From positions 604,128-668,127 of the forward strand of contig NW_003314268.1 in NCBI RefSeq assembly GCF_000143415.4: a stretch of DNA of 64,000 bases, read 5' to 3'. Made by a program: the position numbers and the translations under genes. The notes below the pieces were generated by a model that worked only from the letters and a program-made list of their open reading frames with translations, made no database searches and had not been told where the DNA came from. Shown piece after piece: positions 9,363-35,759 of the stretch; the first letter of the stretch is position 1; the number at the start of each line of letters is the position of its first letter. The DNA is from Selaginella moellendorffii (Eukaryota > Plantae > Lycopodiophyta).

Positions 9363-10305
9363 CCTCCGACCACTTGGAGGAGTCTCACTCACGACCTCCA
9401 TAAATCCTATTTCGGACTTGGGCTTGCTAGCCCTGAGAATGGCATCCCTGCCACTCAACCTTTGCACTTGGTCCAAGTGCTCCACGTGTCCAATCCCATG
9501 ACTGACACCCAAGGTACCACCAATATACCAGCTCGCTATGCTAGGCCATGCCCATTCACCTTGGTCACATCGGTGGTCCAACACCACCTGCATTGCAACC
9601 CCGTCTCTCCAAGATTGGGCCTTCTGTCCATGAGTGGTCATCCCAAATCCACTCCTTAGCATCCTTAGGATGCCCATAGACATGGGGAATAGCCTTCCCC
9701 AATATCTACTTTCCGATCCTCACCAAGTCCCTTTCTATCCATGGCCATGCTCGCCAACATTGCCACTAGATCAGGGCCCACAGGCCCGACCATTAAGTCC
9801 TATGGTCCTCTAGAACTTCCTCACCATGTAACTATGTCCTTGGTCACCGCACCAGAGCATTACTCCTCTTCATTTCCACAGTCTGAGACTTTGGGACAAC
9901 ATTTCGGTACACCGTGGCCCTACGCGGGCCTCTTAGGTACTCTCCCCGCCTTCCGCCTTTGGTTGCTCTAGCCATGGGCTTAGAGCGAGGTTCCATTAAG
10001 CCACGCCTGGTATCCAAGTAGATAGTGCCACCCACACTTGGACTGGGAGCATCGGCCAGTCGATCTTCCGGGGGAACTAGAGCTGGCTCTTGAACACTTC
10101 ACCAAACTACGCTGCTTGTCGGTCTATGTTCACTCTAGTCTTGGACTTCCGGCAACTCATCACCCAACACTGGGTCCAGCCTTCCTGGGCCAAACTGGCC
10201 TTTCCTGGCCAAACTGGCTCCACTACAGTCCTCCCCTTTACTATACTTTTGGAGCTCACCAAACCCCCTAGGGTCTGGAAGACGAACGCTTTGGGCTTTC
10301 ACCCT

Positions 10306-10888: not shown

Positions 10889-12028
10889 TGTAAGGAACCA
10901 ACTCCCCGAGGTGTCGTAGGCTAAAGGATCCCCGAAAGCATGACCAAAATGATAAAGAGTTCATCGGATGGGACCGAGTCTGAGATCGAGTCCAAGACCG
11001 ACTCGAAGACCGAGTTTGAGATAGAGTTCGGAATCGAGTCCGAGGCCGACTTGGAGACTGAGTTCGAGACCGAGTTTGAGACGGAGTCCGAGATCCGAAA
11101 TCGGGTCCGAGACCGAGTCTGAGGTCGAGTCCAAGGTCGGGTCCGAGATCGGGTCCAAAATCGAGTCCGAGATCAAGTCCGAGACCGAATCCAAAGTCGG
11201 ATCCGAGATCGAGTCTGCAATCGAGCAAGAGACTGGGTCCGAGTACTAATACGGGTCAAGGGGTGAAAGCCCAAAGTGTGCGTCTCCCGGGGGGGGGGGG
11301 GGGGTTCCAAAAGTATAGTAGGGATAGTGAGGTCCAGGAACTAGTTTTGAAGGAACTCTCTAGTGGGGCTTCCAAACTGACTTCAGGTTGGGACTGGGAC
11401 CGAGGGGCCTTGGGTGGGAGTGAGCATGGACGTGGTTGGTGCCGGAGGGGCCATCCAAGGAAGTGCTCAAGAGTAGCTCCCACTCCCGAAAGGGAAACCG
11501 ACTGCAGTGCTCCTGGCTCATGTGGAGTGGTGCCCCACTTGAGTACCATGCGGCTCATTGGTCCTCGCCCTTCCTAAGGGCTTGGACCTTCCCTTCAGGA
11601 TAGAAGTGGGGGGTAGAGGTACCCATACCGGGCCGTTAGGCCACAGTGTTTCGCCCCGGCGTCCCGAAGCAAGTGTTGCACCCAAGACTTGGGATTTAGA
11701 GGGTCCTATGATCAAGTCTTATGGTACCAAGGGATGTTAGGAACCTGGAAGCTTGGTGTGCTTGGCTGCTTGTGCTTGTGGGGAGTGTAGCCGAACCTTA
11801 AGTCCAATCTAACCCGGGGAGGGGGATTGGGAGAGATTTGGGAATCCGTGGATGGATGGCTAACACTCTGTTGCTCGTGCAGTGAGTAGCTGAAACCAAG
11901 TAGGACTAAGTAGGAGCTGGTACCATAGGCGGGAACTTTGTTGAGGGAACTTAGCAAAAGCCAAAGCAGTGTTGGACGGATAGACGAGGTGAGCTGGCAA
12001 ATTGGAAAGGAAAAATTTGTGGCTTACA
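10889..12028 (+). mobile_element. Solo LTR, family B, with TSD CACAT
   Basis: TGTAAGGAACC...GGCTTACA, the reverse complement of LTR 33531-34677. CACAT at 10884-10888 and 12029-12033. Confidence 0.95.
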
Positions 12029-13720
12029 CACATATCATGTGTTGATCCTTTTGTATCCCTTTTCTAGAGACTCACTTATTGCTTGCTTCGTGCTTGTTCC
12101 TTGAGCACTTTGTTGGGAGTTCCACTCCCGCTCTTAACCTTTCAAGTCGGAGCTTTTAATCCAAACATGTTACACTCGTTTGGTTTTCGTTTCGGCTACT
12201 ACCACATAGCATCCTTTCGGCTCCACTTTGGGGCTTAGGGATTTTGTGTCTCACAACTCCACCACCCATAGATGAAGTTCGATATCCTCATCGAACAATA
12301 AACTATTTTATAAAATAATATTAACTCGTATTACCATTTCCATCCTTGGCCCCTCGCCAATATTGGTCAATGGTTTGATAGTGAAGGCTCACCATGCCTT
12401 GCCCATCCTCTAAGGGGCATAGTCTCTCCAACTCAAAGACTCATTCAACCACTTATGGTGGTTCTATCCTTTTATTGGTTTGGTTCTCACTAAATCTGCT
12501 AGAGACACCTTCTCTACTTCAATCCTACTACTCATGCTCAAGTACTCTCAGTTTCCATCAACATAACCTTTGCACTTTGGAACTTTTAATTTTGACTCCT
12601 CAGAGTCAATTTTCTATGTGCCTCCGACACCTTGCATTGTATATATAGTGTAACTCCACTTCCCCATTCTAAGAAATTCTCTACTTAAGGGCACCATCAT
12701 ATTCTTTTCGATTTCGTGCCACCTTTGGCACTATATTCCAGTTATCATAATTTGTGCTAGGGCTACCCACGGCCCTATCATTTGGCTACCTTACCACTCC
12801 CCCCCTTGGAGCTTCCACTTTTGCCAAATTGGAGTAATCGGGAATCCATCCTCGGAAAAACATTGCCTTTCCCACAATCCATTAGCACCCAACATATTAG
12901 TATTATTAGCCTAACTTTGCCATTTAGATTCTTTCCCATGATTCCTATGGCCTTTTTCTTAGTCAATAGTCTTTTGCTTTTATCCTTGATTGTTGCACCC
13001 AGCAACATAGGATTGTTACCTTCATTTTCAAGGTATCCTTTCGGTTCCATAGCAAACACTTTGCTTTGCCAAGTCCAGAGGGTGCTCACCCCTAGTACGT
13101 TTCTTTAGCATTTTCTACTGTGGGTTTTATCCACCACCCAACTTTGAGACCCTCCCTTGGATCTCTTATAGAGACTACTTTTCTTGGACTTACTATACCA
13201 TCACATTGACATAGCTCATTCCCTTAGGTGTTCTTCTCACTTGGTCACCTTAACTAAGCCACATCATCATCAATAGTTTGAATTAACACTTTTGAACTAG
13301 GAACTTTATCCCTTCACTTCACAAGAACCTTGTCCTTGTTTTAGCTATAAGACCACCTAGTGATCTAACCTTGGCACCTTAACAAGTTTGTCAATAGGTA
13401 CTAAGTCTTCCAGACCTTTAAGTTGTTGACCATAACCCCGGGGGCATCCCCCACACTTGGCGGTGCACCCAAGCCAACCCTTCCAGCCAAGGGTCCATGG
13501 CAACTGAGACTGGGTGTCCCCATCTCATTCACCACGTCCTTTGTGCCACTTACACCAAAGTGTTCAAGTTAGATATGCCAAGCTTTCACGCTAAGCAATC
13601 TAACCATGCATCACGACTCCGGGGCATCCCCCACTTGGCGGTGTGCCCAAGCTAGTCTCCTTACTAAAAGTCCATGACCACCAAAAAATGAGTGTCATCA
13701 TATTCCAAATTATCACCTCG

Positions 13721-13846
13721 CCCCAGTGAGTTGAGACTCGAACCCAAGCACTAAAGGGTCGGGACTCGAACCCAACCTCTGCATATGCATCTACGGACGG
13801 CATCACATCAAATGTTTGGCGTGACTCCCCACGCTGATGCACCAAC
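13721..13846 (-). ncRNA. Putative tRNA-like structured RNA element with twin T-loop hairpins, element C copy 1
   Basis: Two GGGTTCGAGTC(C/T)C B-box/T-loop hairpins preceded by three hairpins. Homologous to 14590-14715 and to the split copy in element B. Confidence 0.55.
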
Positions 13847-14589
13847 TTATACTTAAAGCACGCTACAGATCACAACTTAGAAACTTAGTTCCTCCGCACT
13901 GACAAGCCCTCTCACTTGACAAGTTTGTGATCATGCATGGACTCCTCCATGCTCAGCCCCATGGGCCACCCCTTTGAAGTTAGCACCTTCAATTGGACTC
14001 TATCCACCGCCCAACTTTGAGACCCTCCCTTGGATCTCTTATAGAGACTACTTTCCTTGGACTTACTATGCCATCACATTGACATAACTCATTTCCCTTA
14101 AGTGTTCTTCCCACTTGGTCACCTTGACCAAGCCACACCATTATCAATAGTTTGAATCAACACTTTTGAACTAAAAACTTTATCCCTTCACTTCACAAAA
14201 ACCTTGTCCTTGTTTTAGCCATAAAATCACTTAGTGATCACACCTTAGCACCTTAATAGGTTTGCTAATAGATATTAGATCTTCTAGACCTTTAAGTTGT
14301 TCACCATAACCCCGGGGCATCCCCCACACTTGGTGGTGCACCCAAGCTAGCCCTTCCGGCTAAAGGTCTATAGCAACTGAGACTGGGTGTCCCCATCTTA
14401 TTCACCACATCCTTAGTGCCACTCGCACCAAGTGTTCAAGTTAGATATGCCGAGCCACACTAAGCAATTTAACCATGTATCACGACTCTGATGCATCCCT
14501 CGCTTGGCGGTGTGCCCAAACCAGTCTCCTCACTGAGAGTCCATGACCACTAAAAAATGAGTGTCCTCATATTCCAAACCATCACCATG

Positions 14590-14715
14590 CCCTAGTGATT
14601 TGGGACTCGAACCCAAGCACTAGAGGGTCGGGACTCGAACCCAACCTCTGTATATGCATCTACGGATGGCATCACACAGGATGCCTGGCGTGACTCCCCA
14701 CACCAGTGCACCAAC
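14590..14715 (-). ncRNA. Putative tRNA-like structured RNA element with twin T-loop hairpins, element C copy 2
   Basis: Minus strand: TGGTGTG-GGGAGT-CACGCCA; GGCATC-CTGTGT-GATGCC; TCCGTAG...TACAGA; GGTTGGG-TTCGAGT-CCCGACC; CTAGTG[TTGGG-TTCGAGT-CCCAA]CACTAG. Confidence 0.6.
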
Positions 14716-16224
14716 ATGTAATTAAATCGTGCTATAGATCACAACTTAGGAACTTAGTTCCTCGATAATATGCATAGATTCCTCCATGCTCGGCCCCATA
14801 GGCCACCCCTTTTGAAGTTAGCACCTTTAATTAGGGGATTTGTTCCCCTGACTTGCCAATCTCACTTAGCAAGTCATCCAACCACCGTAACATGGTTCAT
14901 GCATAAGTATGAAAGTCTTTAACCATCGACTTTCGTTCAAAGCCCTCTTCTTTTAACACTCAGGAACTACTTCCCCAACTTTGATAGCCTCGCCTCATGG
15001 CCAGCTTTGAGACCACGCTTCTGCTATGCCACTTTGATTTCGTGCACTCTAGGAACCATTTACATTTGGCTTTCTAGGTACTTATCTACCTAGAATTATC
15101 TTTAGGAACCTTCAAGGAACTCTATTCTTTAGCTCCCAATAAGAAGTTTTAGGTAGTTACCTTTTACCAATTTAACTAATTATTTTGCACCTTTTGCTTA
15201 GTTGCCTCATAGTTGTCAAGTCCTACAACTCATTGCTAGTGCTTCCACACCTCCATCATTATTTGGGTCACCACACTCTAACCGTATACCTTCCAGCTTA
15301 GGCTATGCCATTCCTGTTCCCATGAAAAAACTTTAAAGAGTATAAATCTGGCATGTTGCATTATTATATTAAATATATTGTACTAAATTAATCTATGAAT
15401 GGATGAATCCTCATCCATAAATTTGTTTTTTATTGTGTATGAACCTAAATTACAAGCATGTGCTCTAAATGTCATTGAGTAGTATTTGCATATATGGATA
15501 AAACTCAACTCATATTAAGAATCAAAACTATGTCATTGAAAAATTATTATTACTAACATCGCCTAACACTTTGACAAACTATTGATATTTTATATGTGAT
15601 CAGATATCTTAGATCTCCATGCTAAAGTAGACTGTCATTCACTCTACTTTCTGTAAAAACCTTAATGCCAGCATCTACTTTAAGCCTAACCCAACTTTCA
15701 TCACAGCTATTCATTGTGGAGTAAATCTTATATGTCCATTTCTTTCTACAATTATTTGCAAGCAATTTACAATTTCTACTCCATGCTAGATTTGATCACA
15801 TGACAAAATCCTTTTGAGTATAGCCTAATAATAAACCTCATAATAGAGGGTTGCCATAATATGACTATACCATAATGTGGAAATAATGTGATAGCTGTGG
15901 AATTGATCACAATACAAAATTATAAATGAGAATTATGTGTTTTCTTGCACATTATAGAATCTTGTCATAAAATATAAGATTCTAAAAATCATAAATTTAT
16001 ATAATTATTTTGCTTATTTTACATATTTATATTATTTTTGTCCTATAAAGGTGTTATTTCTAAAACAATGTGACAAATAATTTATTATAGGTGATAGATA
16101 GTAGTACACAGATGGAATATATTGAAATGAGTACGGAATAATAAGATGATTTCTAGCATTAATGAAGTACTGAAAATATGTACAATATTTAAGACTAAGA
16201 TATTTCTATTATATAATTTGTTTG

Positions 16225-20505: not shown

Positions 20506-21651
20506 TGTCAGCCACAAATTTTTCCTTTCCAATTTGCCAGCTTACTTCATCTATCCGTCCGACACTGCCTTGGCTTTTGCTAAGTTCCCTCGCCAAGGTT
20601 CTCGCCTATGGTACCAACTCCTACTTGGTCCTACTTGGTTTCAGCTACTCACTACACGAGCAATGGAGTGTTAACCATCCATCCATGGATTCCCAATCTC
20701 TCTCAATCCCCCTCCCCGGGTTAGACTGGACTTAAGGTTCTGCTACACTCCCCGCAAGCACAAGTAGCCAAGCACACCAAGCTTCTAGGTTCCTAACATC
20801 CCTTGGTACCACAAGACTTGATCATGGGACCCTCTAAATCCCAAGTCTTGAGTGCAACACTTGCTTCAGGACGCTGGGGCAAAACACCGTGGCCTAGCGG
20901 CCCGGTATGGGTACTTCTACCCCCCCACTTCCATCCCGAAGGAAGGCCCAAACCCCTAGGAAGGGCGAGGACCAATGAGCCGCATGGTACTCAAGTGGGG
21001 CACCACTCCACATGAGCCGGGANNNNNNNNNNNNNNNNNNNNNNNNNNNNNNNNNNNNNNNNNNNNNNNNNNNNNNNNNNNNNNNNNNNNNNNNNNNNNN
21101 NNNNNNNNNNNNNNNNNNNNNNNNNNNNNNNNNNNNNNNNNNNNNNNNNNNNNNNNNNNNNNNNNNNNNNNNNNNNNNNNNTTCAAAACTGGTTCCTGGA
21201 CCTCACTATCCGTACTATACTTTTGGAACCCCTGCAAGCCCCCCCCCCCTTGGGAGACGCACGCTTTGGGCTTTCACCCCTTGACCCGTATTAGTATTTG
21301 GACTTAGTCTCTGGCTTGATCTCAGACTCGATTTCGGATCTGACTTCGGATTCGGTCTCGGACTCGATCTCGGACTCGATCTCGGACCCGATCTCGGACC
21401 CGACCTCGTACTCGACCTCGGACTCGGTCTCGGACCCGATTTCGGATCTCGGACTCCGTCTCAAACTCGGTCTCGAACTCGGTCCCCGAGTCGGCCTCGG
21501 ACTCGATTTTGGACTCTATCTCGAACTCGGTCTCCGAGTTGGTCTTGGACTCAATCTTCAACTTGGTCCCATCCGATGAACTCTTTATCATTTTGGTCAT
21601 GCTTTCGGGGTTCCTTTAGCTTACGACACCTCGGCAAGTTGGTTCCTTACA
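20506..21651 (-). repeat. 3' LTR of element B (contains an assembly gap)
   Basis: tgtcagccac...ttccttaca, colinear with 33531-34677. Confidence 0.95.
21023..21181. other. Assembly gap (N run)
   Basis: Run of N. Confidence 1.
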
Positions 21652-21663
21652 ACTCCACCACCC
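21652..21663 (-). other. Polypurine tract of element B
   Basis: GGGTGGTGGAGT immediately 5' of the 3' LTR start TGTAAGG. Confidence 0.85.
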
Positions 21664-21934: not shown

Positions 21935-23059
21935 TGTAGCGCACATGGTTTTGACCCTTTATCCTATGGTGATTTACCATAGGATAACACTACGAAGCGA
22001 ACCCTCCTTGTGCCACGTGACAGATGCCACGTGTCACATGCCACGTGTCCATGCCACTTGTCCACGGGAACCCGAGGTTCAGGGCCTTGGGCCACTGAAC
22101 GAAGGAACGGTGCCAAACTCCCAAACATGGAGCCAAGGAGTGACGGAACCGAACCACGGAGCCACTCCCAAGCATGAAGCCCAAGGAGCGAAGGGACAGG
22201 AGCCCGGAGCAACTTGGAACAGTCCTAGAGTAACCAGCATCCCAATGCCAGGACCAGCACGCAAAACGGAGCCAAACGGAGTCTGGCGCTATTTCAGCAT
22301 ACCGGTGGCCTAACGCAAGGACATGGGTACTCCACTAACTAGCATGGAATGGAACTTGGGCTTAGACCTAAGCCGGACGCAGAACAAGGACAGGCACGCA
22401 AGCGGGAGCTAGACTATGCCTCAGGTTGGTCGGCCATGCCCGACCTACCCACTATCCCTACTATACATTTGGAACCCCCTATATCCCCCCCCCCCCTTGA
22501 GGAACACACGCTTTGGGCTTTCACCCCAAGCCTCCCTTAGTATCAGGAGTTAGTCTCTGGGACAAGCTCGAAACTTACTAAATATGGAATGTCCCTAGAT
22601 TGCGAATTTGGACATGGGACGAACACCATTGTGTTCAGGACGATCTCTACATTCTGTAGATATGCCAAATGAGCAAATCTGGACACTTCCCATAAATAGC
22701 ATTTGGGACCGAAATGAGACCAACACAAAGGGCATGATAGCGAGGGTGTTTGGCAGACACGGTAAGCTATCATCTAGCAATATTGAGGGACCAAGCTCAA
22801 TATCACGGGGGTTCCCAACACTAGCAAGTGCAAGTCAACGAATGAGTTTCTCTAACCAGGTCAAGTATGCTTGACAAATAGCACGTAGGAATTCCGTCCT
22901 TATGCCCATCTGGTCAAGTGCACACGCGAAGACCAGTTTCTCAACTAGCTTAGGCGGAGACTGATAACAGGCCCAGCAATACCGACCTCCTGCCATCGTG
23001 GCAGTAAGGTAAGAGTGTCCGTAAGGACTAGTCGACAGGTAACTTTCGATACCCGAAGT
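21935..23059 (-). repeat. 3' LTR of element A (lacks its first 13 bp and the PPT)
   Basis: Matches 27435-28564 and then diverges; cacatgcgcgaca is missing. Confidence 0.92.
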
Positions 23060-26000
23060 TGATTAGAACACAAAAGTATTCCAAGTAAGTTATCATCTGA
23101 TAAACCAGTATTATAGTAGATAGGAACCACCAAGATCATCAAAATTGGTAAACATAGGAATGACCATCCAACAAAATTCAATAGCAAGTGTATTATCAAG
23201 AAAACTCAATGACCAAACGTAACTATCAAAGATTGCAGATAGAATACCAAACAGCTTACGAAAGACAACTCAAAGAACACAAAGTATCATTGACTGATAA
23301 GCAAAATGCTCACGAATGTATCACCCAAAGGAAATAACATCCAAATCTATCAAAACTAACTTGAGCAACAATCAATAGAAGAGAATGAATGTGGTAAGAC
23401 CAACAAACACTCATTCCTGCCAACTATCACAAAAGCTAATCTGAATAGATCCCAGCCAACAATACCAAGGAACTCAAGTTGCTGAAGCAAGTGTCAGCAA
23501 CATCCTACTGATGTCTCAAACCTAAGAAACCAATCCAGAGCAAATCACAAAGAACATGTGATATTGCGAAAAGCCACAAGCCATCAAAGAGAACAACTAA
23601 CTACCATAAAAGATCATCAATCATCCTATCAATAGAGAAATGCATAATCATCATCGAAGAAAGAATCCACCATCTCAAAGAATGGCAAATCATTCTATAT
23701 CAACAATAATCAAGCAAAGCCTTTTTGATAAGGATAATCAACTATCCTAGATGATAGTTAATCATCACCAATGATTGCCATATGCAAATACTAACTTCAA
23801 CATTGAAGCTAAAGAGCCAAAAATGCCTTCCCCAACAACTTCAAACAAATGGACCACAAGCATGAAAACTCAAGGAACCAAAAGCTCGAAGAAGTCTATA
23901 GCGAAGTTTTTGCCTAACAATGATCACGAGTCTCGCATGAACTAACTTCAATGCTAAAGAAGAAATCATGGTACAACCCACAATATCCTCCTCAACACAT
24001 CCATAAGCTAAACTTCATAATGCAAAGCTAATGAAGAGCATGTCTGCATCAATCCAAAAGCTAAGCATAACGAAGCTATGCTGGACAAGTGATCACCAAA
24101 CGATCCTCCATGAATCCATCCATAGCAAGACGTAACTCACTTCATAACAAGCACAAAAAGAATCATCAATGATTCATATATCCCAATGCAAACCCAACAA
24201 GGGACCAACATCTTCAATATCAATCACTAACTCTTCATCTTGTAGAGTTAGCATAGTCCATGACTAAATCACTTTTCAAGGAAAAGCCAAAGCTTAACCC
24301 TTACTAAATAATCTCGTCTAGAACACAACTAACTCAAACTTGTCACTCAGTTCATTTGAACGTCAACACAGTTGCTAACTAGCAAATGCACGAATGCTAA
24401 TAACACAAAGCCATAGCCAAATCATCAACACTATCTTTATCAAAACTAATGAAGCTCGACATCAATCTTGCAGAGAGACATCTCATTTCACTAAAATTTC
24501 AACATCAACAATGTCAACGATAAGGCATCACTTCAATACCATCAACACTAGAACAAAGCTAGAAGAAAGCACGAGTGAATCACCACTCAAAGCTCTCTAG
24601 CAACTAAGCTAACCAAGGTCGAAGATACTTTAGTTAGTAACCGAGACCAATCCTTTAGCAAAACTCAGTTATAGATAACACTTCCTCAAGGAGTGAATCA
24701 CCATGTCCAAGACTCCATGAAATCCAACACTATGAACTAAACGCAACCAATTGATATCGACAGAGGTAGAATCAACATACCAACATGGTAAACTCATGTA
24801 AGTCTAACGATACGATCCTCCGCAACACCATCCGGTAAAGCAAACCCATCAGTGCTAAATCTTCATCGAGCGAAGCAAGTGTTAAACAATCCTCGATGAA
24901 GTCTACAAGCAATCATTAGTCGCAAAGCAACTAACCATCACTTTTTCAACTTGCTTTCACGAGATCGAAACACTAAACTCACGTCATTTAGTCATACACT
25001 TGTCCAACATGAACGTGATACCTCAGGTACGAGATAAAGTTTCATAGACAAGCACGAACTAAATGACCACTCAAATCCAACTCAACCGCGATAAGCTCAC
25101 CAATGCATTTAGTCACTAGCTCTGAGCATGCCTTGAAGAGGCTAGCTATGCATAATCAACACTCAGTCGAAACTAAAGTGAAGACCATATGATGGATCCA
25201 TATCAGTACACAACCTCCTTATAAACAAAGCTATAGTACGGGTACTAACATCTCAAACTCAAACAACTAAGTTGGACATCACTATCCTCAGCCAAGGCGC
25301 AGGACCACCAAGTCCAAGTCAAGATCAGTGAGAGCTCACTACTCTCATAGAGTCTAACAAATTGCCAAGTGCAATTTGCCACTAAGCATAACGCTACAGA
25401 AGAAAGGCACAAGAGTCACGTTTCTTAGAAAAGCGCAACAGCCACTTTTCTACACTAACTCCAGACTCTATCCAACTCAATTGCCTTAGCCCCAAAAGTT
25501 AGCATCCCTTTTGGGCTGCATCATACAAACTATCTACTAAGGTCTAAGCTAACCGAAGTCAACTCCAACCCCTTCACTAGTTTGTATTGGCTTATGAAAA
25601 CGGAATGGTTTTCGAGCAAAGTGATAACAGATCAGCCATTAGAAAAGTCTAAGAAAATTTGTGGAAAATCTTCCAATCCTAGAGAAAGAATAACTCTCAG
25701 TCCAAGAATGCAAACTTTCAAGACTCAACCAACTTCCTCCTACTAACAACTTCACATAGGTTCACTTCAACACAAATTCTCATGACCCATAGTATGCTTA
25801 AGCATCGAACATCTCTTTTTGCCCATACTTTCGACATCTAACACCGACATCCATAAAATGCAAATGGAACATCCAAGGCTTGATCACGAAGACCACATCT
25901 TTGGATATCCACATTGCACTAACACTCTTCTTCAACCACCTTCAAGATCCAATGTGAAGCTAAAACACTAACAAGAAAAATGACATGGAAAATCAAGCTC

Positions 26001-27421
26001 TAAGGAAAATCCTCATCACTTGAAACAACAATATCACTTCCACTAACACAAGTGTTAGCAATGTCAATGCTTCAACTACACACTTTCTCCATCCAGCAAT
26101 CTACTCCAAGTGCTAACGGATCAACTGATGAGCTATAGCAAATGAATGCTATAACCTTCTTCCAACACGTTATGGGCAACTCTCAAGGAAACAAGCTTAG
26201 CATAATGGACCACCACTGAGAATCCAGTCAAAGCTACTACAATGCTACTTCGTGCAAGTAGACTAGCTTCACCATCAACCACTTTGGGGTTGATCATCGT
26301 TTACCCAAGCAACTTCGTAAACACATTGCTCATTATCACATGGATATGATATAGAAATCACAATGACTTGATCACCAATTGAGCAACACCACGAGCAATG
26401 CCAATGTCATTACTTCAAAGGTTTATGTGAGTATCAAGTGTCAACTCGATTCGACAAAATGCAACATAAATGCCACACTCTACCGATAGAGATCTATAAC
26501 ACCCAACACCACTAACTTTTGTTCACAACACAGACAAGCCCATACCACTCGCTATCCGATCAAACTCAAAACTTAACCCAACACTAAGCTACTCAAGGAG
26601 CAATAGCTAGGTTCCCCGAAAAAGAATTGAGCATTGCAACCCAAGTCTTCCCATAGCAAACCTAGACAAAATGGTTTAGCGCTTCACCGCTATCCATCCC
26701 ACAACTCACCATTTGTAAGACTATCATTTCCAACATGCATTAAGATAGGGACTCTTGATTGCATAATGTGAACACGAGCAATGAGTCACACCTCGTTGCA
26801 AATCATCTCTCCAAGAAGAAAAGATGATTTACGTGTTTGATCCTTCGTCCCTGATAACTCTCTTTTCGGTCTCATCTTTGACTAAACCTCAAACTTGCGT
26901 TCGCACTGCTTTCAGTCCAATCCAAGAAAAGTTTATGAGAGAGCACGGCAATGATTACTTGAATCAATAGACTAATCCCTACAGTCTTGATTGATCCACT
27001 TGTAATCATGCCTAGGAAGGATCTACTAGTGCCGTGCTAAACAGCTACGGACCAGCCTATTTGCCACTCATAGCAAACTCAGGGAAGGTTTGCTTTTACC
27101 AACGGTACACGGAACAACTCATGGAACCACCGATAGCCTAACATTAATCCTGCCAACCCAAAGTTTAATCTCGAGTTGCTAATGTGCTTCACTCACGAGC
27201 CCAAGCGTAAACTCGTGCTAACGGAGCATCTCAAATCCATCCTATGAGCCCAAGAGCAAGCTCACATTATTAGGTACAAAAGGTAACCAAATCCATACCC
27301 AAGGAACAATTGCGAACCCTTTGCACCAAATGTGTACCCACTCGGATCATCGTTTTCATCTCTGCGTATGCAACGAGACTAGTTGCCCAATCTCATTGAA
27401 TAGTACTCGCTGAGACTCATC
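23060..27421 (-). pseudogene. Extremely degenerate Ty1/Copia gag-IN-RT-RH
   Basis: Remnants occur in Copia order on the minus strand: SWAHRM (gag, ~27250), CDNEQ (~RSDNG, ~26330), LPITCWKKVIAFICY (~LPKxFWxEAvxTAcY, 26133-26180), WISKDVVF (~ISRDVVF, ~25900), SLVAR (~RLVARG, ~24605), YRLLRAFGSL (~YRSIVGSL, ~23890). Confidence 0.65.
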
Positions 27422-27434
27422 CTCTGATACCAAA

Positions 27435-28577
27435 TGTAGCGCACGTGGTTTTGACCCTTTATCCTATGGTGATTTACCATAGGATAACACCACGAAGCGG
27501 AACCTAAACCCTCCTTGTGCCACGTGACAAATGCCACGTGTCACATGCCACGTGTCCATGCCACGTGTCCACGGGAACCCGAGGTTCAGGGCCTTGGGCC
27601 ACTGAACGAAGGAACGGTGCCAAACTCCCAAACATGGAGCCAAGGAGTGACGGAACCGAACCACGGAGCCACTCCCAAGCATGAAGCCCAAGGAGCGAAG
27701 GGACAGGAGCCCGGAGCGACTTGGAACAGTCCTAGAGTAACCAGCATCCCAATGCCAGGACCAGCACGCAAAACGGAGCCAAACGGAGTCTGGCGCTATT
27801 TCAGCATACCGGTGGCCTAACGCGAGGACATGGGTACTCCACCAACTAGCATGGAATGGAACTTGGGCTTAGACCCAAGCCGGACGCAGAACAAGGACAG
27901 GCACGCAAGCGGGAGCTAGACTATGCCTCAGGTTGGTCGGCCATGCCCGACCTACCCACTATCCCTACTATACATTTGGAACCCCCTATATCCCCCCCCC
28001 CTTGAGGAACACACGCTTTGGGCTTTCACCCCAAGCCTCCCTTAGTATCAGGAGTTAGTCTCTGGGACAAGCTCGAAACTTACTAAATATGGAATGTCCC
28101 TAGATTGCGAATTTGGACATGGGACGAACACCATTGTGTTCAGGACGATCTCTACATTCCGTAGATATGCCAAATGAGCAAATCTGGACACTTCCCATAA
28201 ATAGCATTTGGGACCGAAATGAGACCAACACAAAGGGCATGATAGCGAGGGTGTTTGGCAGACACGGTAAGCTATCATCTAGCAATATTGAGGGACCAAG
28301 CTCAATATCACGGGGGTTCCCAACACTAGCAAGTGCAAGTCAACGAATGAGTTTCTCTAACCAGGTCAAGTATGCTTGACAAATAGCACGTAGGAATTCC
28401 ATCCTTATGCCCATCTGGTCAAGTGCACACGCGAAGACCAGTTTCTCAACTAGCTTAGGCGGAGACTGATAACAGGCCCAGCAATACCGACCTCCTGCCA
28501 TCGTGGCAGTAAGGTAAGAGTGTCCGTAAGGACTAGTCGACAGGTAACTTTCGATACCCGAAGTCACATGCGCGACA
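27435..28577 (-). repeat. 5' LTR of element A
   Basis: TGTAGC...GCGACA with the adjacent iMet PBS. Confidence 0.95.
27518..27570. promoter_or_regulatory. Four tandem G-box/ABRE motifs in LTR-A (also at ~22010-22063)
   Basis: TGCCACGTGACA-AA-TGCCACGTGTCACA-TGCCACGTGTCCA-TGCCACGTGTCC; the reverse complement contains GACACGTGGC. Confidence 0.6.
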
Positions 28578-29084
28578 CCTACAGGGAGTCGGGCGTAGCT
28601 CCTTACGCCTGGTCGACCTAGCTAACCCATGCTAATTAGCTTACCTTCAGCGCGCCTTCGGGTCCCAACATATGCCATTGCTCAACTTCACAAATTGATA
28701 CTTTAATTGAACTTTGCATAAGTACATAGAGTTCTGCCTTGCAGAAATTCCTCCACTAGATCTCACGCGTTCGCTAGGTTTTCCTCCGGTTCCCATGTTG
28801 CTTCGCAGTGTGGAAATCCTTTCCACTTCACATGGAACTCTCTCACCTCACGTCCTTGTCGCTTGCTCTTGCACGCATTGAGGATGGCCTCGACTTCGTA
28901 TTCCTCTTCCCCTTGGATAACCTCAGGTAAAGGTCTTACTTGGTCCTTGCGAAGCGGATCCTCAAAATACGGCTTGAGTAAGTTCACGTGGAACACGGGA
29001 TGCATCTTCCCCATCTCTCGAGGAAGTCGGAGTCGGTAAGCCACTTTACCGATTCGAGCCTCAATCTCGTAAGGCCTTGCAAAC

Positions 29085-29136
29085 CTGCTTAAGGAACTCA
29101 AGATTAATTCATTTACAGGAATACATGCATTTTTAC
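29085..29136 (-). other. 52-bp GT-AG intron in the integrase C-terminal region
   Basis: CAAAG|GTAAAA...TTAAT...AAGCAG|GTTT. Removal gives KLTQRFARPYEI and joins ORFs 29133-29537 and 28763-29101 in frame. Confidence 0.85.
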
Positions 29137-29554
29137 CTTTGGGTCAACTTCCGGCTGATCCCACTTGGTAGCCTGAGGTTCTTAGTGTTCAGCCACACCT
29201 TCTCCCCAGCTTGGAACTCTACATCCCGGCGCTTCTGGTTCGCGTACTTAGTTTGCCTTTGTTGAGCCCGTTCCAAGGAATCCCTCACTAGATTCCAAAT
29301 GTTGAGTCTTTCCGCCGTGAATGCCTCCACTGCGGGTAACTCTCCATGATACTCGGCCATGCCGAGTTCCACAGGACCTTCAATAGCTCGCCCATTGATG
29401 ACTTCCCATGGACTCACCCCGATACTCAAATGTGGTGAGTTGTTATAACACATTTCCGCAAGTCCCAAATGACTTACCCAATCGGTCTGGTCTCCCGAGA
29501 CATAGCATCGCAAATAATCCTCCAGCTGCCTATTCACCCTTTCTGTTTATCCGT

Positions 29555-29601
29555 CTGTCAAGAAGTGTTAGTGCCACTAAACTTTACTTAATACCCCATA
29601 C
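29555..29601 (-). other. 47-bp GT-AG intron in the integrase catalytic core
   Basis: ACAG|GTATGG...CACTAAC...TTGACAG|ACGGA. Removal restores STAYHPQTDG(Q>stop)TERVNR in frame. Confidence 0.85.
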
Positions 29602-32600
29602 CTGTCTGTGGGTGATAAGCTGTGCTGAATTTCAACTTGGTGCGATACTGTTCCAAGAGAGTCCTCTAGAATCTACTAGTGAAGATCTTATCTCGATCTA
29701 AGATGATCTCTTCTGGCCTTCCCCGTACTCGAACCACTTGTTCGAAGAATAGCTTCGCCACACCTTCCGCATCCACTTCTGTTGTGGTGGGTATGAAATG
29801 TGCCATTTTCGAAAATCGGTCCACCACCACGAATATCGCATCAAACCCCTCGCTTGGGGGAAGTCCTGTGATGAAATCCATCATAAGACATTTCCACGGA
29901 CGATCTGGAATTGGGATGCTTTGCAACAAGCCCCCACTAGCTTTAGTCACGGCTTTGACCTGCTGACATGTTGGACATGTCTTTACATAGTCTTGGACAT
30001 CCTTAACCATATCTAGCCAATAGTACTTCCTCTTGAGTAAGCCCATCGTCTTGGGCACTCCGCCGTGTCCCGCAAGAGGTCCGTCATGACACTCTTCTAA
30101 GGTTACCTTCCTTAGTTCCCCTTCTGGAACATACACCCTCGTTTGCTTGTAATAGATGAGTCTGTTGCGTTCTGCATAGCCCGTTTTCTTTTCCGTTGGC
30201 AGCTCACCTCTCTGGTGAGCTTCCCGTGCCTCCAGATTCCTCACCAACACTTCTTGTGCTAGACCATCGTTCTCATATGCTGTCCGCACATCATCCCAGA
30301 AGGTTGTTGTTGCGCTGGATATTGCCAACCTCAAGCTCGCTTTTCGACTTAGCGCATCCGCCACGATGTTGCTCTTCCCAGGCTTGTACAGAATCTCGCA
30401 ATCAAACTCGGCCAAGGCATTGGCCCACCGACCTTGTTTCCCTCTCAGGTCGGGCTGTGACAAGAAGTGTTTCGTTGCCACATTATCCATGTAAACCTTG
30501 AAGTGTCTCCCAAGGTAGTGTCGCCACTCCTTGAGTGCCTTGACCACCGCAAACAATTCCTTCTCGTGGGCAGGCCACTTCCGTTGAGCCTTGTCTAACT
30601 TCTTCGAGAAGAACGCTACTAGATGGTTGTCTTGCTTCAAAACTGCACCCAACGCAAAGTCCGAAGCATCCGTTTCTACCTCATAGTCCCTACCAAAGTC
30701 TGGTAATGCCAACACGGGAGCCTTCCTCAACTTCCCTTTGAGGTGGACGAATGCCGCCTCACATTCCGCTGTCCATACCATCTTCCCTTTTCCTGTTTGG
30801 TCCGTTAAGGGCAGGGCTACTCTCGAATAGTGTCTGATAAACTTTTGGTAGTAGTTGCATAGCCCCAAGAACGCCCTGAACTCATGTACATTCGATGGTC
30901 GCTCCCATTCCTAGATCGCTTGGACCTTCTCCGGGTCCACCTTGAGCCCGTCCTAGCCCACCACATGCCCGAGAAACTTTACCTCTTGTTGAGCAAAGTC
31001 ACATTTGCTCTCTTTAGCATACAGTTTGTGTTCCCTTAGTTTCTCAAACACCTTCGCCAAGTGTTCGGCATGCTCCTCTAGCGTCTCACTATAGATCAGG
31101 ATGTCGTCGATATAGACAACCACGAAGTGATCCAGATATGGTACAAAGATGTGGTTCATCAACGCCGAAAACGTTGCCGGTGCATTGCACAGCCCAAAGG
31201 GCATCACCAAAAACTCAAAGTTCCCATACCTCGTTCGACAGGTTGTCTTCTCGACATCTTCCTCAGCTACCCTGATCTTGTAGTATCCTGACCTTAGGTC
31301 AATCCTCGAGAAGTATTTTGCCTTTCCCAACCTATCGAATAGGTCCTCAATCCTTGGCAAAGGGTACTTGTTCTTCTTTGTATACTTGTTGAGCAACCGG
31401 TAATCTATGCACATGCGCATAGATCCATTTTTCTTTTTCATAAATAACACCGGTGCCCCATACGGCGACTTGCTCAACCTAACATACCCTTTGTCCACCA
31501 ACTCCTCTAATTGGCACTTGAGCTCCTTGAGTTCTTTTTCGTTCAAATGATAGGGGGGACGAACCACCGCCTCAGCACCCTCGACCAGCTCAATCTTATG
31601 TTCTATTGATCGTGCGGGGGGCAACCCCACCGGTAACTCCTCTGGCATGGTATCCTGGAATTAGTCCAACACCCGTCGGATCACTAAAGGTACTTCTTCC
31701 GTTCCTGTCTTTTTGTCACTCTTCACCGAGAGTAAGCACAAAAATGCTACCTTAGTTCCTTTAGTGAGTTGTCCTCTCGTGGACACCAGGTTTAAGCAGG
31801 ATTCTTTGGCTTTGCTTTGCCCTACCTTTAGATCCTGGGCCTCCACCCTAGATCTTCTTCCTTAGGCATTCGCCAGTACCACAAGGTTCCTACCTTGTCC
31901 ATGCAGGGCTACCACGAACCGATTGAACCATCCATTCCGAAGATCACATCAAATCCCGCCATATCCAACACGGTGAAATCCATGTCTACTTTCCATGTCC
32001 CTACTTCGACTCTCGCTTGTCGAAGTACCTCATCGGTGCTTTGGCTACCTTGAACAAACTCTATAGTCCTTGGTTCGCCTAGCCGTTGCACCGTTAGTCC
32101 GGCTTGCCGGACTATGTCTGCAGCCACAAAATTATCTGAAGCACCCGTGTCAATAAAGATCTTAACAAAGCTACCTCCGAGCTTCCCTCGGAGGGCTAGT
32201 AGATGTCGCGAACGACTCTCTACCAAAGTTGCTCATGTAATGAGTAACTTTGAGTTAGAGACTGGATCACATACCTCGGTTTGGACTTCACCCAACTTGA
32301 TGGCCATATTGGCTCTGGCCTTCTTCGAGTAGGGACATTCCCTTGAAAAGTGTCCCGCTTCACCGCAGTTGTAGCATACGTTGTTTCCCACGCTGCTATA
32401 TGACTTGACCTTCTTATCCGTGGGTTTGTCTTTTTTCGCTTGACTTCCCCACGTACTCGCTCGCTGACCACCGGATTTGCCTTTCCGGAACCCCGAGGAC
32501 TCATTCTTAGAGAAACTCTTGAATTTTCCCCTGCTATACGTTCCCCTTGGTTTGGCCCCTTTGCTAAATGTGGCTCCCAACCCCGTCGTGTTCCCTTTTC

Positions 32601-33514
32601 ACAAATTATCGTTGAAGTGCACCTTGATGGCCGCATCCAACGCTTCCTTGTAGTTGGTCGGGTTCCAGCGCATCACCTCACCGCGAGCCCAAGTTTGCAA
32701 ACCTGAAATGAAGGCATGGAACGCATCCATATCCCCCATGTCCGTGACAAGTATCCTCTTTGCCATGAACCCATTCACATATTCCTGGATGGTTCCAGTC
32801 TGCTTTAGCCTACTCAGCTCATCTCTCAGATGCAGAGTGGCATTCAGAGGAACGTATGTTGCGTGGATCCTCGCCTTCATCATGTCCCAAGTGGCCACTG
32901 GTCCTTCGTTGGCCTCCGTCGTTCTCCACCAAGACTTGGCATTATCTGCCAAGTATGGTTTTGCACATTGGACCTTCTCCGAGCTCGGTAATCGCAACGC
33001 TCGGAAGTAGTCCTCCATATCGTAAAACCAATCCTCCACCACCTTATAGTCATTCACTCCCTTGAAGACCGGTGGGGGCTTTGGTTTGTACTTGGGAACT
33101 GCCTGAGGGATTGATTCTACTTTGGTCTGTTCGACCTTGTTTGGTTCTGCCTCAGTCCCTACCGAAGGGTCCGCACCTTCTGCACTGCCAGCATCCGCAA
33201 TCTTTCTCTTTTTCTTCCGCTTCTCGTCATGCTTTAGCTTGCATACGAGAGTCTCCAGTAGGGCATTGGTCTGTGCCAACTGTCCTTTTAGCATGTCCAA
33301 TCGAGCCTTGGATGACCGAACCTCACCACCGGACTCCTGTTTAGAAGTTTCCTCACTAAAGTCTTCCTTATGCAAGGATTCCTCATCCATAGCCTCTTGT
33401 TCGACCGGAGGCTCCAACTCTGGCGGAGGTTCTGTCTCCGCCTGGGTTCGCTTACGCCCTACCCTTGCCATCTCCCAGCAATCCGCCTCTATCCTTTGCT
33501 AGAACTGAGGAAAA

Positions 33515-33527
33515 GGCTCCGATACCA
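33515..33527 (-). other. Primer binding site (tRNA-iMet) of element B
   Basis: TGGTATCGGAGCC, 3 nt downstream of the 5' LTR end. Confidence 0.92.
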
Positions 33528-33530
33528 AAT

Positions 33531-34677
33531 TGTCAGCCACAAATTTTTCCTTTCCAATTTGCCAGCTTAACTCGTCTATCCGTCCGACACTGCCTTGGCT
33601 TTTGCTAAGTTCCCTCACCAAGGTTCTCGCCTATGGTACTAACTCCTACTTGGTCCTACTTGGTTTCAACTACTCACTGCACGAGCAACAGAGTGTTAGC
33701 CATCCATTCACGGATTCCCAATCTCTCTCAATCCCCCTCCCCAGGTTAGACTGGACTTAAGGTTCGGCTACACTCCCCGCAAGCACAAGCAGCCAAGCAC
33801 ACCAAGCTTCCAGGTTCCTAACATCCCTTGGTACCATAAGACTTGATCATGGGACCCTCTAAATCCCAAGTCTTGAGTGCAACACTAGCTTCGGGACGCC
33901 GGGGCGAAACACCGTGGCCTAGCGGCCCGGTATGGGTACCTCTACCCCCCCACTTCCATCCCGAAGGAAGGCCCAAGCCCCTAGGAAGGGCGAGGACCAA
34001 TGAGCCACATGGTACTCAAGTGGGGCACCACTCCACATGAGCCGAAAGCACCGAAATCAGTTTCCCTTTCAGGAGTGGGAGCTACTCTTGAGCACTTCCT
34101 TGGATGGCCCCTCCGGCACCAACCAAGTCCATACTCACTCCCACCCAAGGCCCCTCGGTCCTAGTCTCAACCTCAAGTCGGTTTGGAAGCCCCACTGGAG
34201 AGTCCCTTCAAAACTGGTTCTTGGACCTCACTATCCTTACTATACTTTTGGAACCCCCTGCAGCCCCCCCCCCCCCTGGGAGACGCACGCTTTGGGCTTT
34301 CACCCCTTGACCCGTATTAGTATTTGGACTTAGTCTCTGGCTCGATCTCGGACTTGATTTCGGATCCGACTTTGGATTCGGTCTCGGACTCGATCTCGAC
34401 CTCGATCTCGGACCCGATCTCAGACCCGACCTCGGACTCGACCTCGGACTCGGTCTCGAACCCGATTTCGGATCTCGGACTCGGTCTCGAACTCGGTCTC
34501 GAACTCGTTCCCCGAGTCGGCCTCGGACTCGATTTCGGACTCTATCTCGAACTCGGTCTCCGAGTTGGTCTTGGACTCGATCTTTGACTTGGTCCCATCC
34601 GATGAACTCTTTGTCATTTTAGTCATGCTTTCGGGGTTTTTTTAGCCTACGACACCTCAGCGAGTTGGTTCCTTACA
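33531..34677 (-). repeat. 5' LTR of element B
   Basis: TGTAAGG...GCTGACA on the minus strand, with a GACTCGATCTCG-type array at ~34325-34590. Confidence 0.96.
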
Positions 34678-35759
34678 CTAAAGTGGGGGTATTCATATAC
34701 ACCAAACAAGCCTTACTATTGTTGAGTTGCAAAAGACTTTTGGAGCTAACTAGATTTTCCAAGATTATTCTCTATCAATAATATATACTTATTATACTTT
34801 ATATAATTAATAAAAATTATTTTTTCATTTCATTTTTTATTTCATATACTTGCACATGTTCTTTTTGCAATACTACCCATAGTACTCATGTGTCTCCATT
34901 TTTGTCTTTTACCATTTCAAAAATTATTTCATGATAGTCTTTCGGGTATGTGATATTGCAGCGTGTCATGAGAGCATATATACCATTATATTGATCATCA
35001 CCATCATTTCCATTTGAAGCTAAGAAACATATAATACATTCTTTGAAAGTCACAGAATTATAGTTTTCTAAAACAAGTAGGAGATCATTCTTTTTCACTT
35101 AATTATTTCACCCTTTGTTATTGTATTTATCTTTAACTCATAATCATTATCTTTACTATCCTCTCTTTCTTTCTCTTGTATGGTTTAGTTGTGTTATACA
35201 ATGGGATGAGTATTACAGCTTTTAGCCCTTGAATTACTACTTTGAGAAGAAAGATTGCAAGAGTTAAAATTACCAACATTAAAACCCATAAACATTTATG
35301 TGTGCTTCCCTCTTTTCGAATAACAGTGCAAATGAAGATCTATAAATTCTAGACAATATAGTATAACTAACCCTTCAAAAAAGTATTTTAAAGATGAACT
35401 AAATCTCTATTTTATATGTAACAAATGTACATAAATGGTTGTTTTTTTTCCTTTCAAATAGTTATATAGCTTTACATAGAATTTTATTTCAAAATTGATA
35501 ATTTTTAAATTCTGACAAACCTAACATTTATTAGCTAGAAAGGAGAATACAGATTTAAGGAAATGACAAGAATACTTTTCTAAAAACATCTTATTTTCTG
35601 TTTTAACAAACATCCCTATTATGGCATATAATTAATATTTAAATTGTTAGAACAAGAAGTCTATATAATATGTAGAGAGTTGTAAAATTATTAGGTTTAT
35701 TAAATTATAATTGAAAATTTAACTCAACTCACAAGCTCAACTCTTCAGCTTAGTTCACA

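Follow-up and report, generated by a model that had tools for sequence, protein, structure and literature searches.

The window, a stretch of 64,000 nucleotides of Selaginella moellendorffii DNA, contains a complete LTR retrotransposon on its minus strand, which we call element B. We delimited its parts by LTR comparison, by Pfam and structure matches, and by placing contigs from four RNA-like sequencing runs (X1, X2, X4, and X8), which come from four studies and whose RNA status is the tool's guess. The features are as follows.

34677-20506, minus: element B, complete LTR retrotransposon, Ty3/gypsy chromovirus
34678..34682, with a second copy at 20505-20501, minus: target-site duplication (TSD) TTTAG
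33531..34677, minus: 5' LTR, TG..CA, 1147 bp (LTR comparison)
33505..33570, minus: intron 0, 66 nt, comprising the last 40 nt of U5, the primer-binding site (PBS), and a pyrimidine tract (X2 joint, LTR comparison, depth arithmetic)
33516..33527, minus: PBS TGGTATCGGAGC, entirely within intron 0
32275..33471, minus: Gag exon, Retrotrans_gag and CCHC knuckle, ATG at 33471 (Pfam)
32118..32274, minus: intron G, 157 nt, GAG/GTATGT..TGCAG/AC (X4 loose end and X2 coverage hole; absent from the joint table)
29602..32117, minus: pol, with the remaining protease, RT, RNase H, integrase HHCC, and first two catalytic Asp (Pfam)
29555..29601, minus: intron 1, 47 nt, ACAG/GTATGG..CTAAC..GACAG/AC (joints in X1 and X2; one raw read of run X16)
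29137..29554, minus: integrase exon with the catalytic Glu and remaining core (Ty3 match)
29085..29136, minus: intron 2, 52 nt, AAG/GTAAAA..AAGCAG/G, in the SH3/GPY-F region (joints in X1 and X2)
28703..29084, minus: last coding exon, remaining SH3_Tf2-1 and chromodomain (Pfam PF24626, PF00385)
21935..28577, minus: nested, unrelated LTR element C within the 3' UTR of element B, TSD GTAGG
21652..21663, minus: purine-rich tract directly before the 3' LTR, likely the polypurine tract (PPT)
20506..21651, minus: 3' LTR, with an N gap at 21023-21181 (LTR comparison)
10889..12028, plus: solo LTR belonging to the family of element B, flanked by a separate TSD (CACAT) and retaining the GT donor of intron 0

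Every structural test places element B among the Ty3/gypsy chromoviruses. It has TG..CA LTRs with a TSD, a PPT, and a PBS that we take to be of the initiator-Met type; its domain order by Pfam is Gag-PR-RT-RH-INT; and its integrase combines D,D(35)E with a C-terminal chromodomain (PF00385, E 2e-13), the 35-residue Asp-Glu spacing being found in the spliced reading only. The exon between introns 1 and 2 matches Ty3 Gag-Pol (7q5b, residues 1272-1389, E 8e-4). In an RT-RH-INT tree of 41 sequences, which used 40 of the 87 full-span homologues and was built without labelled Galadriel, Galahad, or Tcn1 references, element B was sister (0.91) to P0027/P0079 and a mostly angiosperm chromovirus group, with a best identity of 50%.

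The two LTRs are 94.4% identical over 987 comparable bases, and this copy is dead, carrying nine stops and one deletion. Point stops lie at 32601, 32235, 31864, 31663, 30955, 30913, 29667/29668, and 28765, a further stop occupies the Gln codon of the HPQTDGQTER motif at 29549, and a 1-bp deletion lies near 31929. The sequence-only reading of this stretch had likewise described the lesions outside the integrase inserts as point stops plus a single 1-bp deletion, and these positions bear it out.

Several neighboring sequences deserve mention. Element C (28577-21935, minus) has LTRs that are 98% identical, the TSD GTAGG, and a decayed internal region that appears copia-like by eye; a start at 28669 was dropped once the TSD at 28577/21935 was found. 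Its LTR and that of element B, otherwise unrelated, have in common a core of about 110 nt (TGAAAGCCC, a G run, and a TATA-like box) at 80-82% identity, and the first 9 nt of this core also occur at 10301 and 1405. In the 3' UTR of element B (21934-21652) there are two motifs resembling tRNA T-loops, and this UTR is 70-76% similar to an 870-bp tandem duplication (13128-14832); ARAGORN called no tRNA gene. A second gypsy remnant (9384-8240, minus; RNase H and integrase HHCC) stops short of the sites where introns 1 and 2 would lie. Host genes are found at 37317-59724: PPR genes (three long ORFs), a GeBP-like factor, a P450 interrupted by a 52-nt intron, a methyltransferase, and a lectin receptor kinase encoded in a single exon, for which the closest outside relative shows 36% identity.

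Introns 1 and 2 are spliced and family-wide

From the letters alone, two apparent frameshifts in the integrase had been interpreted as introns, and both GT-AG inserts lie where they were placed, 47 nt at 29601-29555 and 52 nt at 29136-29085. Intron 1 interrupts the Asp codon of HPQTDG, with CTAAC at -17 and GACAG at both ends. The GC content is 38% in intron 1 and 31% in intron 2, compared to 49% in pol; windows of the same size in pol are equally AT-rich in 6.9% of cases for intron 1 and 0.5% for intron 2. The proposed likeness in size to host introns holds for the P450 gene, whose 52-nt GT-AG intron was the only host intron checked. All four introns of the element have U2-type GT..AG ends, except that the intron 0 donor reads TT in the 5' LTR of element B. 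YTRAY-like motifs lie at -17, -23, -32, and -36 in the four introns, and we regard the one in intron 0 as weak because the solo LTR has CTTAC there. Introns 1 and 2 also carry direct repeats of 4-5 nt at their ends (GACAG in intron 1, AGGT in intron 2), as expected if these two introns were gained by insertion with target duplication.

Excising both inserts produces a single frame from RNase H to the chromodomain, reading through FSTAYHPQTDG*TERVN and KLTQRFARPY, and sets the distance from the second Asp to the Glu at exactly 35 residues. The claim that excision restores the frame thus stands, while exact restoration of HPQTDGQTER is found in other family copies but not in element B, where the stop at 29549 intervenes. 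Among homologue alignments that extend across the junctions, the spliced reading was gap-free near junction 1 in 208 of 214 and near junction 2 in 118 of 141. Unspliced RNA runs into a stop four codons past HPQT, and the frame agrees with the prediction that it would encode Pol cut off ahead of the catalytic Glu. Retention of intron 2 alone places a stop directly after KLTQR. An integrase without its chromodomain (intron 1 out, intron 2 in), the basis of a suggested two-step control over integration and targeting, is therefore possible from the sequence, and this isoform is absent among the contigs listed.

The sequencing runs contain the predicted junctions at their exact positions. Contigs from X1 and X2, two of the four RNA-like runs, have joints that omit precisely 52 nt and precisely 47 nt and show CT..AC ends; in X2 both lie on one 1083-nt contig. 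Since these joints are exact, chance is excluded as an explanation for both inserts. Contigs from X4 and X8 retain intron 1, and the depth of X4 extends into both ends of intron 2. In X16, which is recorded as RNA-seq, one raw read covers 29549 and 29618 and none of 29577-29598; its depth bins (3 + 61 + 40 + 35 + 11 = 150 nt) fit only if intron 1 is skipped, a single read being under the threshold of the joint table. About 12% of each of X16, X17, and X18 was searched, from which 6, 3, and 0 raw reads were placed, respectively.

Three of the raw reads fall within intron 2, and by depth arithmetic all fit a start at 29112, the site of a loose end in X8. We read them as a truncated family copy and did not count them as intron 2 retention. 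The 29112 junction (X8, X16, and X17), which recurs in two studies, and a similar one at 29306 (X1) mark transcribed, truncated family fragments fused to other sequence; short motifs from these loose ends were not found in the window.

In DNA, the same segments are present. X15 comprises 718 Mb of contigs; its library type is not on record and was taken as DNA, and its organism label differs from that of the RNA runs. It placed 459 contigs on 28600-30400 with no skipping joints, including a contig of depth 132 that crosses intron 2 ungapped. Over intron 1 the depth was approximately 120-165, and none of the five variant positions fell at GT or AG (among the 40 of 88 variant rows listed), so the splice dinucleotides are conserved to that extent. 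At 29549, X15 differed from the stop of element B at a depth of 643 out of 643, and its dominant contigs also lack the stops at 29667/29668 and 28765. The inserts are therefore not private to element B, and introns 1 and 2 are family-wide in DNA. Contigs drop rare forms, which means that X15 shows intron presence and could miss rare intronless genomic copies. Together, introns 1 and 2 are spliced: they are absent precisely from RNA and present in DNA.

Outside the family, the nearest homologues reach 47-52% identity at best, and 3 viral and 36 metagenome loci (37 of these 39 matched by tblastn) are distant from element B. No insert was present at junction 1 in any of 25 spanning loci or at junction 2 in any of 29. 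Similarly, none of 185 proteins with an HPQTDG-type motif, of which 14 end within 25 residues of it, carried an intron-like tail.

Introns at the primer-binding site and at the end of Gag

Intron 0 spans the boundary between the 5' LTR and the internal region and includes the terminal CA of the LTR. X2 contains a 66-nt joint at 33502/33569, which can be shifted to 33570-33505; the tool flagged it as "between: not known," and the depth bins fit it exactly. The acceptor is TTTTCCTCAG. The donor GT is found in the 3' LTR (20545), in the solo LTR, and in X4. Of the four RNA-like runs, one (X2) joins intron 0; X4 is the single further run with clear coverage of the site, and its record 20 retains the intron. 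Folding of the leader revealed no unusual stability (z -0.56).

Other properties of this region were also observed. Between a TATA-like box and the Gag start, the leader has nine ATGs (34250-33472, minus), and the 5' part of the LTR contains an array of repeats with a 12-bp period (34618-34208, minus) that is open for 136 codons. In element C, a GT ahead of the LTR end and a CAG shortly after the PBS lie 68 nt apart (27477-27410, minus), which makes this segment a second candidate PBS-spanning intron, judged by its letters and lacking a clear pyrimidine tract.

Intron G lies at the border of Gag and protease, and a loose end in X4 together with a coverage hole in X2 define it in our reading of the tables. 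In X4, the 28 nt behind 32119 match the window at 32277-32304 in 24 of 28 letters (by eye), and the X2 hole extends over 32120-32279. When retained, intron G is coding, providing the N-terminus of the protease with its DTG motif; when it is spliced, a stop follows one codon past the junction and only Gag is encoded. X2 coverage runs on through pol past intron G. In X4, a G-spliced contig occurs alongside a leader contig that retains intron 0 and the PBS, so some spliced molecules may keep their PBS, given that contigs drop rare forms.

A proposed division between messenger and genome by splicing

X2 is the run in which all four introns are missing. None of its listed contigs keeps any of them, its depth bins match the four gaps exactly, and the depth of the listed contigs (6.7-9.4) is similar along the element. 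No listed contig carries both the intron 0 joint and the integrase joints, which are 4 kb apart. X2 is not ordinary genomic DNA, because all four segments are missing from its listed contigs and a copy in the genome could not replicate once it had lost its PBS and protease site. Separate TSDs flank element B and the solo LTR, which indicates that the family spread by integration while carrying splice signals. The loss of introns is classically taken as proof of retrotransposition and used to report it; this family, which moved by integration, has kept two non-coding introns, 1 and 2, in its integrase.

Based on these results, the family carries four GT-AG introns, and we lean, with a little more belief than doubt, toward the view that their splicing produces a messenger unfit for reverse transcription. 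Unspliced RNA alone would then serve as the template, and the introns would pass on to new copies. The tRNA primer cannot bind an RNA that lacks the PBS. If intron 0 is always lost when splicing occurs, the spliced RNA cannot be primed and the introns in pol are never lost. For this, almost all molecules that lose intron 1 or 2 would also have to lose intron 0. The contrast between X2, in which all four introns are gone, and X4, which keeps introns 0 and 1 and reaches into both ends of intron 2, fits this view. Selective packaging of unspliced RNA, which had been put forward as a necessity, may then be unnecessary because intron 0 removes the PBS.

Three RNA classes would follow from this arrangement: a fully spliced Gag messenger, a Gag-Pol messenger that retains intron G and lacks introns 1 and 2, and an unspliced genome. 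The second class would be the sole source of full integrase; among the RNA-like runs, no contig proves it. Unspliced RNA could give Gag, protease, RT, and RNase H, but its integrase would be dead, and the ratio of integrase to Gag would fall accordingly. As to how the arrangement came about, we give roughly even credence to the proposal that the element has placed its PBS within an intron, whereby engagement of the spliceosome irreversibly turns a transcript from genome into messenger, that this gate frees the element from the rule of intron loss, and that host-sized introns have since been gained in the integrase active site, making integration dependent on splicing. The gate would then be what let ordinary introns persist in pol.

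A rather unlikely alternative combines incomplete, independent splicing with selective packaging or export of unspliced RNA, or has intron-less copies that are poorly expressed and die out, with intron 0 being a 5' UTR intron that spans the PBS by chance. Retroviruses package unspliced RNA as their genome, and the G-spliced contig of X4 stands beside contigs that retain the PBS and intron 1, as this account would have it. However, it needs an additional, unseen selection step, the splicing in X2 is all-or-none, and it would be left unexplained why the PBS is so closely enclosed by a pyrimidine-rich acceptor and by a donor that three LTR copies retain.

We consider it distinctly improbable that the division is made by two start sites, as in BARE1 (described in the accessible part of PMC3735527), with uncapped upstream-start RNA remaining unspliced as the genome, capped downstream-start RNA being spliced and translated, and PBS loss acting as a second safeguard. 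The LTR is long, and the nine ATGs ahead of Gag would hinder translation from an upstream start; contigs do not show RNA ends, and the scheme is compatible with a gate at the PBS.

There is very little to recommend the idea that splicing is a by-product, with the host splicing one domesticated or decayed copy of a family that the inserts had inactivated. Element B is indeed dead, domesticated retroelement genes can gain introns, and the spliced contigs of X1 and X2 could stem from a single locus. Against this, the inserts occur both in the dominant X15 contigs, which lack three of the stops of element B (29549, 29667/29668, and 28765), and in element B, a separate insertion with its own TSD. 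The X2 transcript also spans LTR, gag, and pol, and noise is unlikely to yield four exact GT-AG events whose products make sense together. Template switching during library preparation is scarcely credible: 5 letters at the intron 1 junction and 4 at that of intron 2 do fit on either side, but the sense strand reads GT-AG at all four junctions, the joints in integrase recover the frame common to 208 of 214 homologues, and these joints recur in two studies, with intron 1 also skipped in a raw read of a third.

If removal of the PBS by splicing does separate the two pools, it explains both the sharing of one RNA between translation and replication and the persistence of introns in a retroelement. 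Pipelines that require open frames would then be misreading such families as frameshifted and dead.

Comparison with known systems

Our literature search found no LTR element with integrase introns or with an intron that removes the PBS; a prior annotation may exist in Repbase, in subscription journals, or in the element table or FASTA of PMC6317226, which lay outside this search. In its accessible part, a 2025 review states that plant LTR elements are generally intron-free and names only Ogre and EVADE as exceptions (PMC12786077). The comparisons below likewise draw on the accessible parts of the papers cited.

The splice at the Gag/protease border, which leaves a Gag-only frame, resembles the copia shGAG strategy. 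The element B family works in the same way without being a member, as its domain order is that of gypsy and not of Ty1/copia, and it supplies a gypsy example of Gag-only splicing. EVADE/ATCOPIA93 is similar in that a protease-centered intron yields the Gag-only messenger shGAG; it differs in being copia, and the available text describes no PBS or integrase introns (PMC5580714). EVADE also couples its splicing to early termination (PMC5580714); in the element B family, X2 coverage runs on through pol, though contigs do not show where RNAs end. According to the same portion of that study, no such conserved shGAG-type splicing was found among Arabidopsis Ty3/gypsy elements (PMC5580714).

BARE1 of barley, a Ty1/copia element, has a 104-nt intron at the end of Gag that leads to a stop just after Gag, and its translated RNA pool lacks the R domain, a signal needed for reverse transcription (PMC3735527). 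From what the accessible text gives, the two systems are alike in having one ORF, a small intron at the Gag end, and a translated RNA that is not copied; BARE1 differs in being copia, in splitting its pools by start site and not by PBS removal, and in making Pol from unspliced RNA (PMC3735527). In the element B family, by contrast, full integrase requires two splices.

The major splice donor of foamy viruses lies upstream of the PBS. In these viruses, functional integrase also comes only from spliced RNA, while Pol is a separate protein made by one long splice, with no introns inside the integrase in the portion available (PMC7828637). Penelope-like elements keep introns as well, one of them in the 5' UTR across the terminal-repeat boundary, and the accessible part of the preprint calls the significance of this retention unknown; they have a GIY-YIG endonuclease, no integrase, and no tRNA PBS (bioRxiv 10.1101/2021.04.23.441226). 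Element B, with its rve integrase and LTRs, is ruled out as one of them. The same lycophyte, S. moellendorffii, hosts another chromodomain-bearing gypsy element, SM-Tcn1, which has 440-bp LTRs, no PBS, and two ORFs, with no intron reported in the text available (PMC2864245). The 1147-bp LTR and PBS of element B rule out SM-Tcn1 as its family, and we treat the two as separate.

Ogre is comparable in that a non-coding intron is kept in the genome and removed to translate the whole polyprotein; as far as the accessible part goes, it has one inter-domain spacer of about 270 bp and is not a chromovirus (PMC6317226). Element B instead has two tiny introns inside conserved integrase motifs, and its PBS intron offers a reason for their retention.
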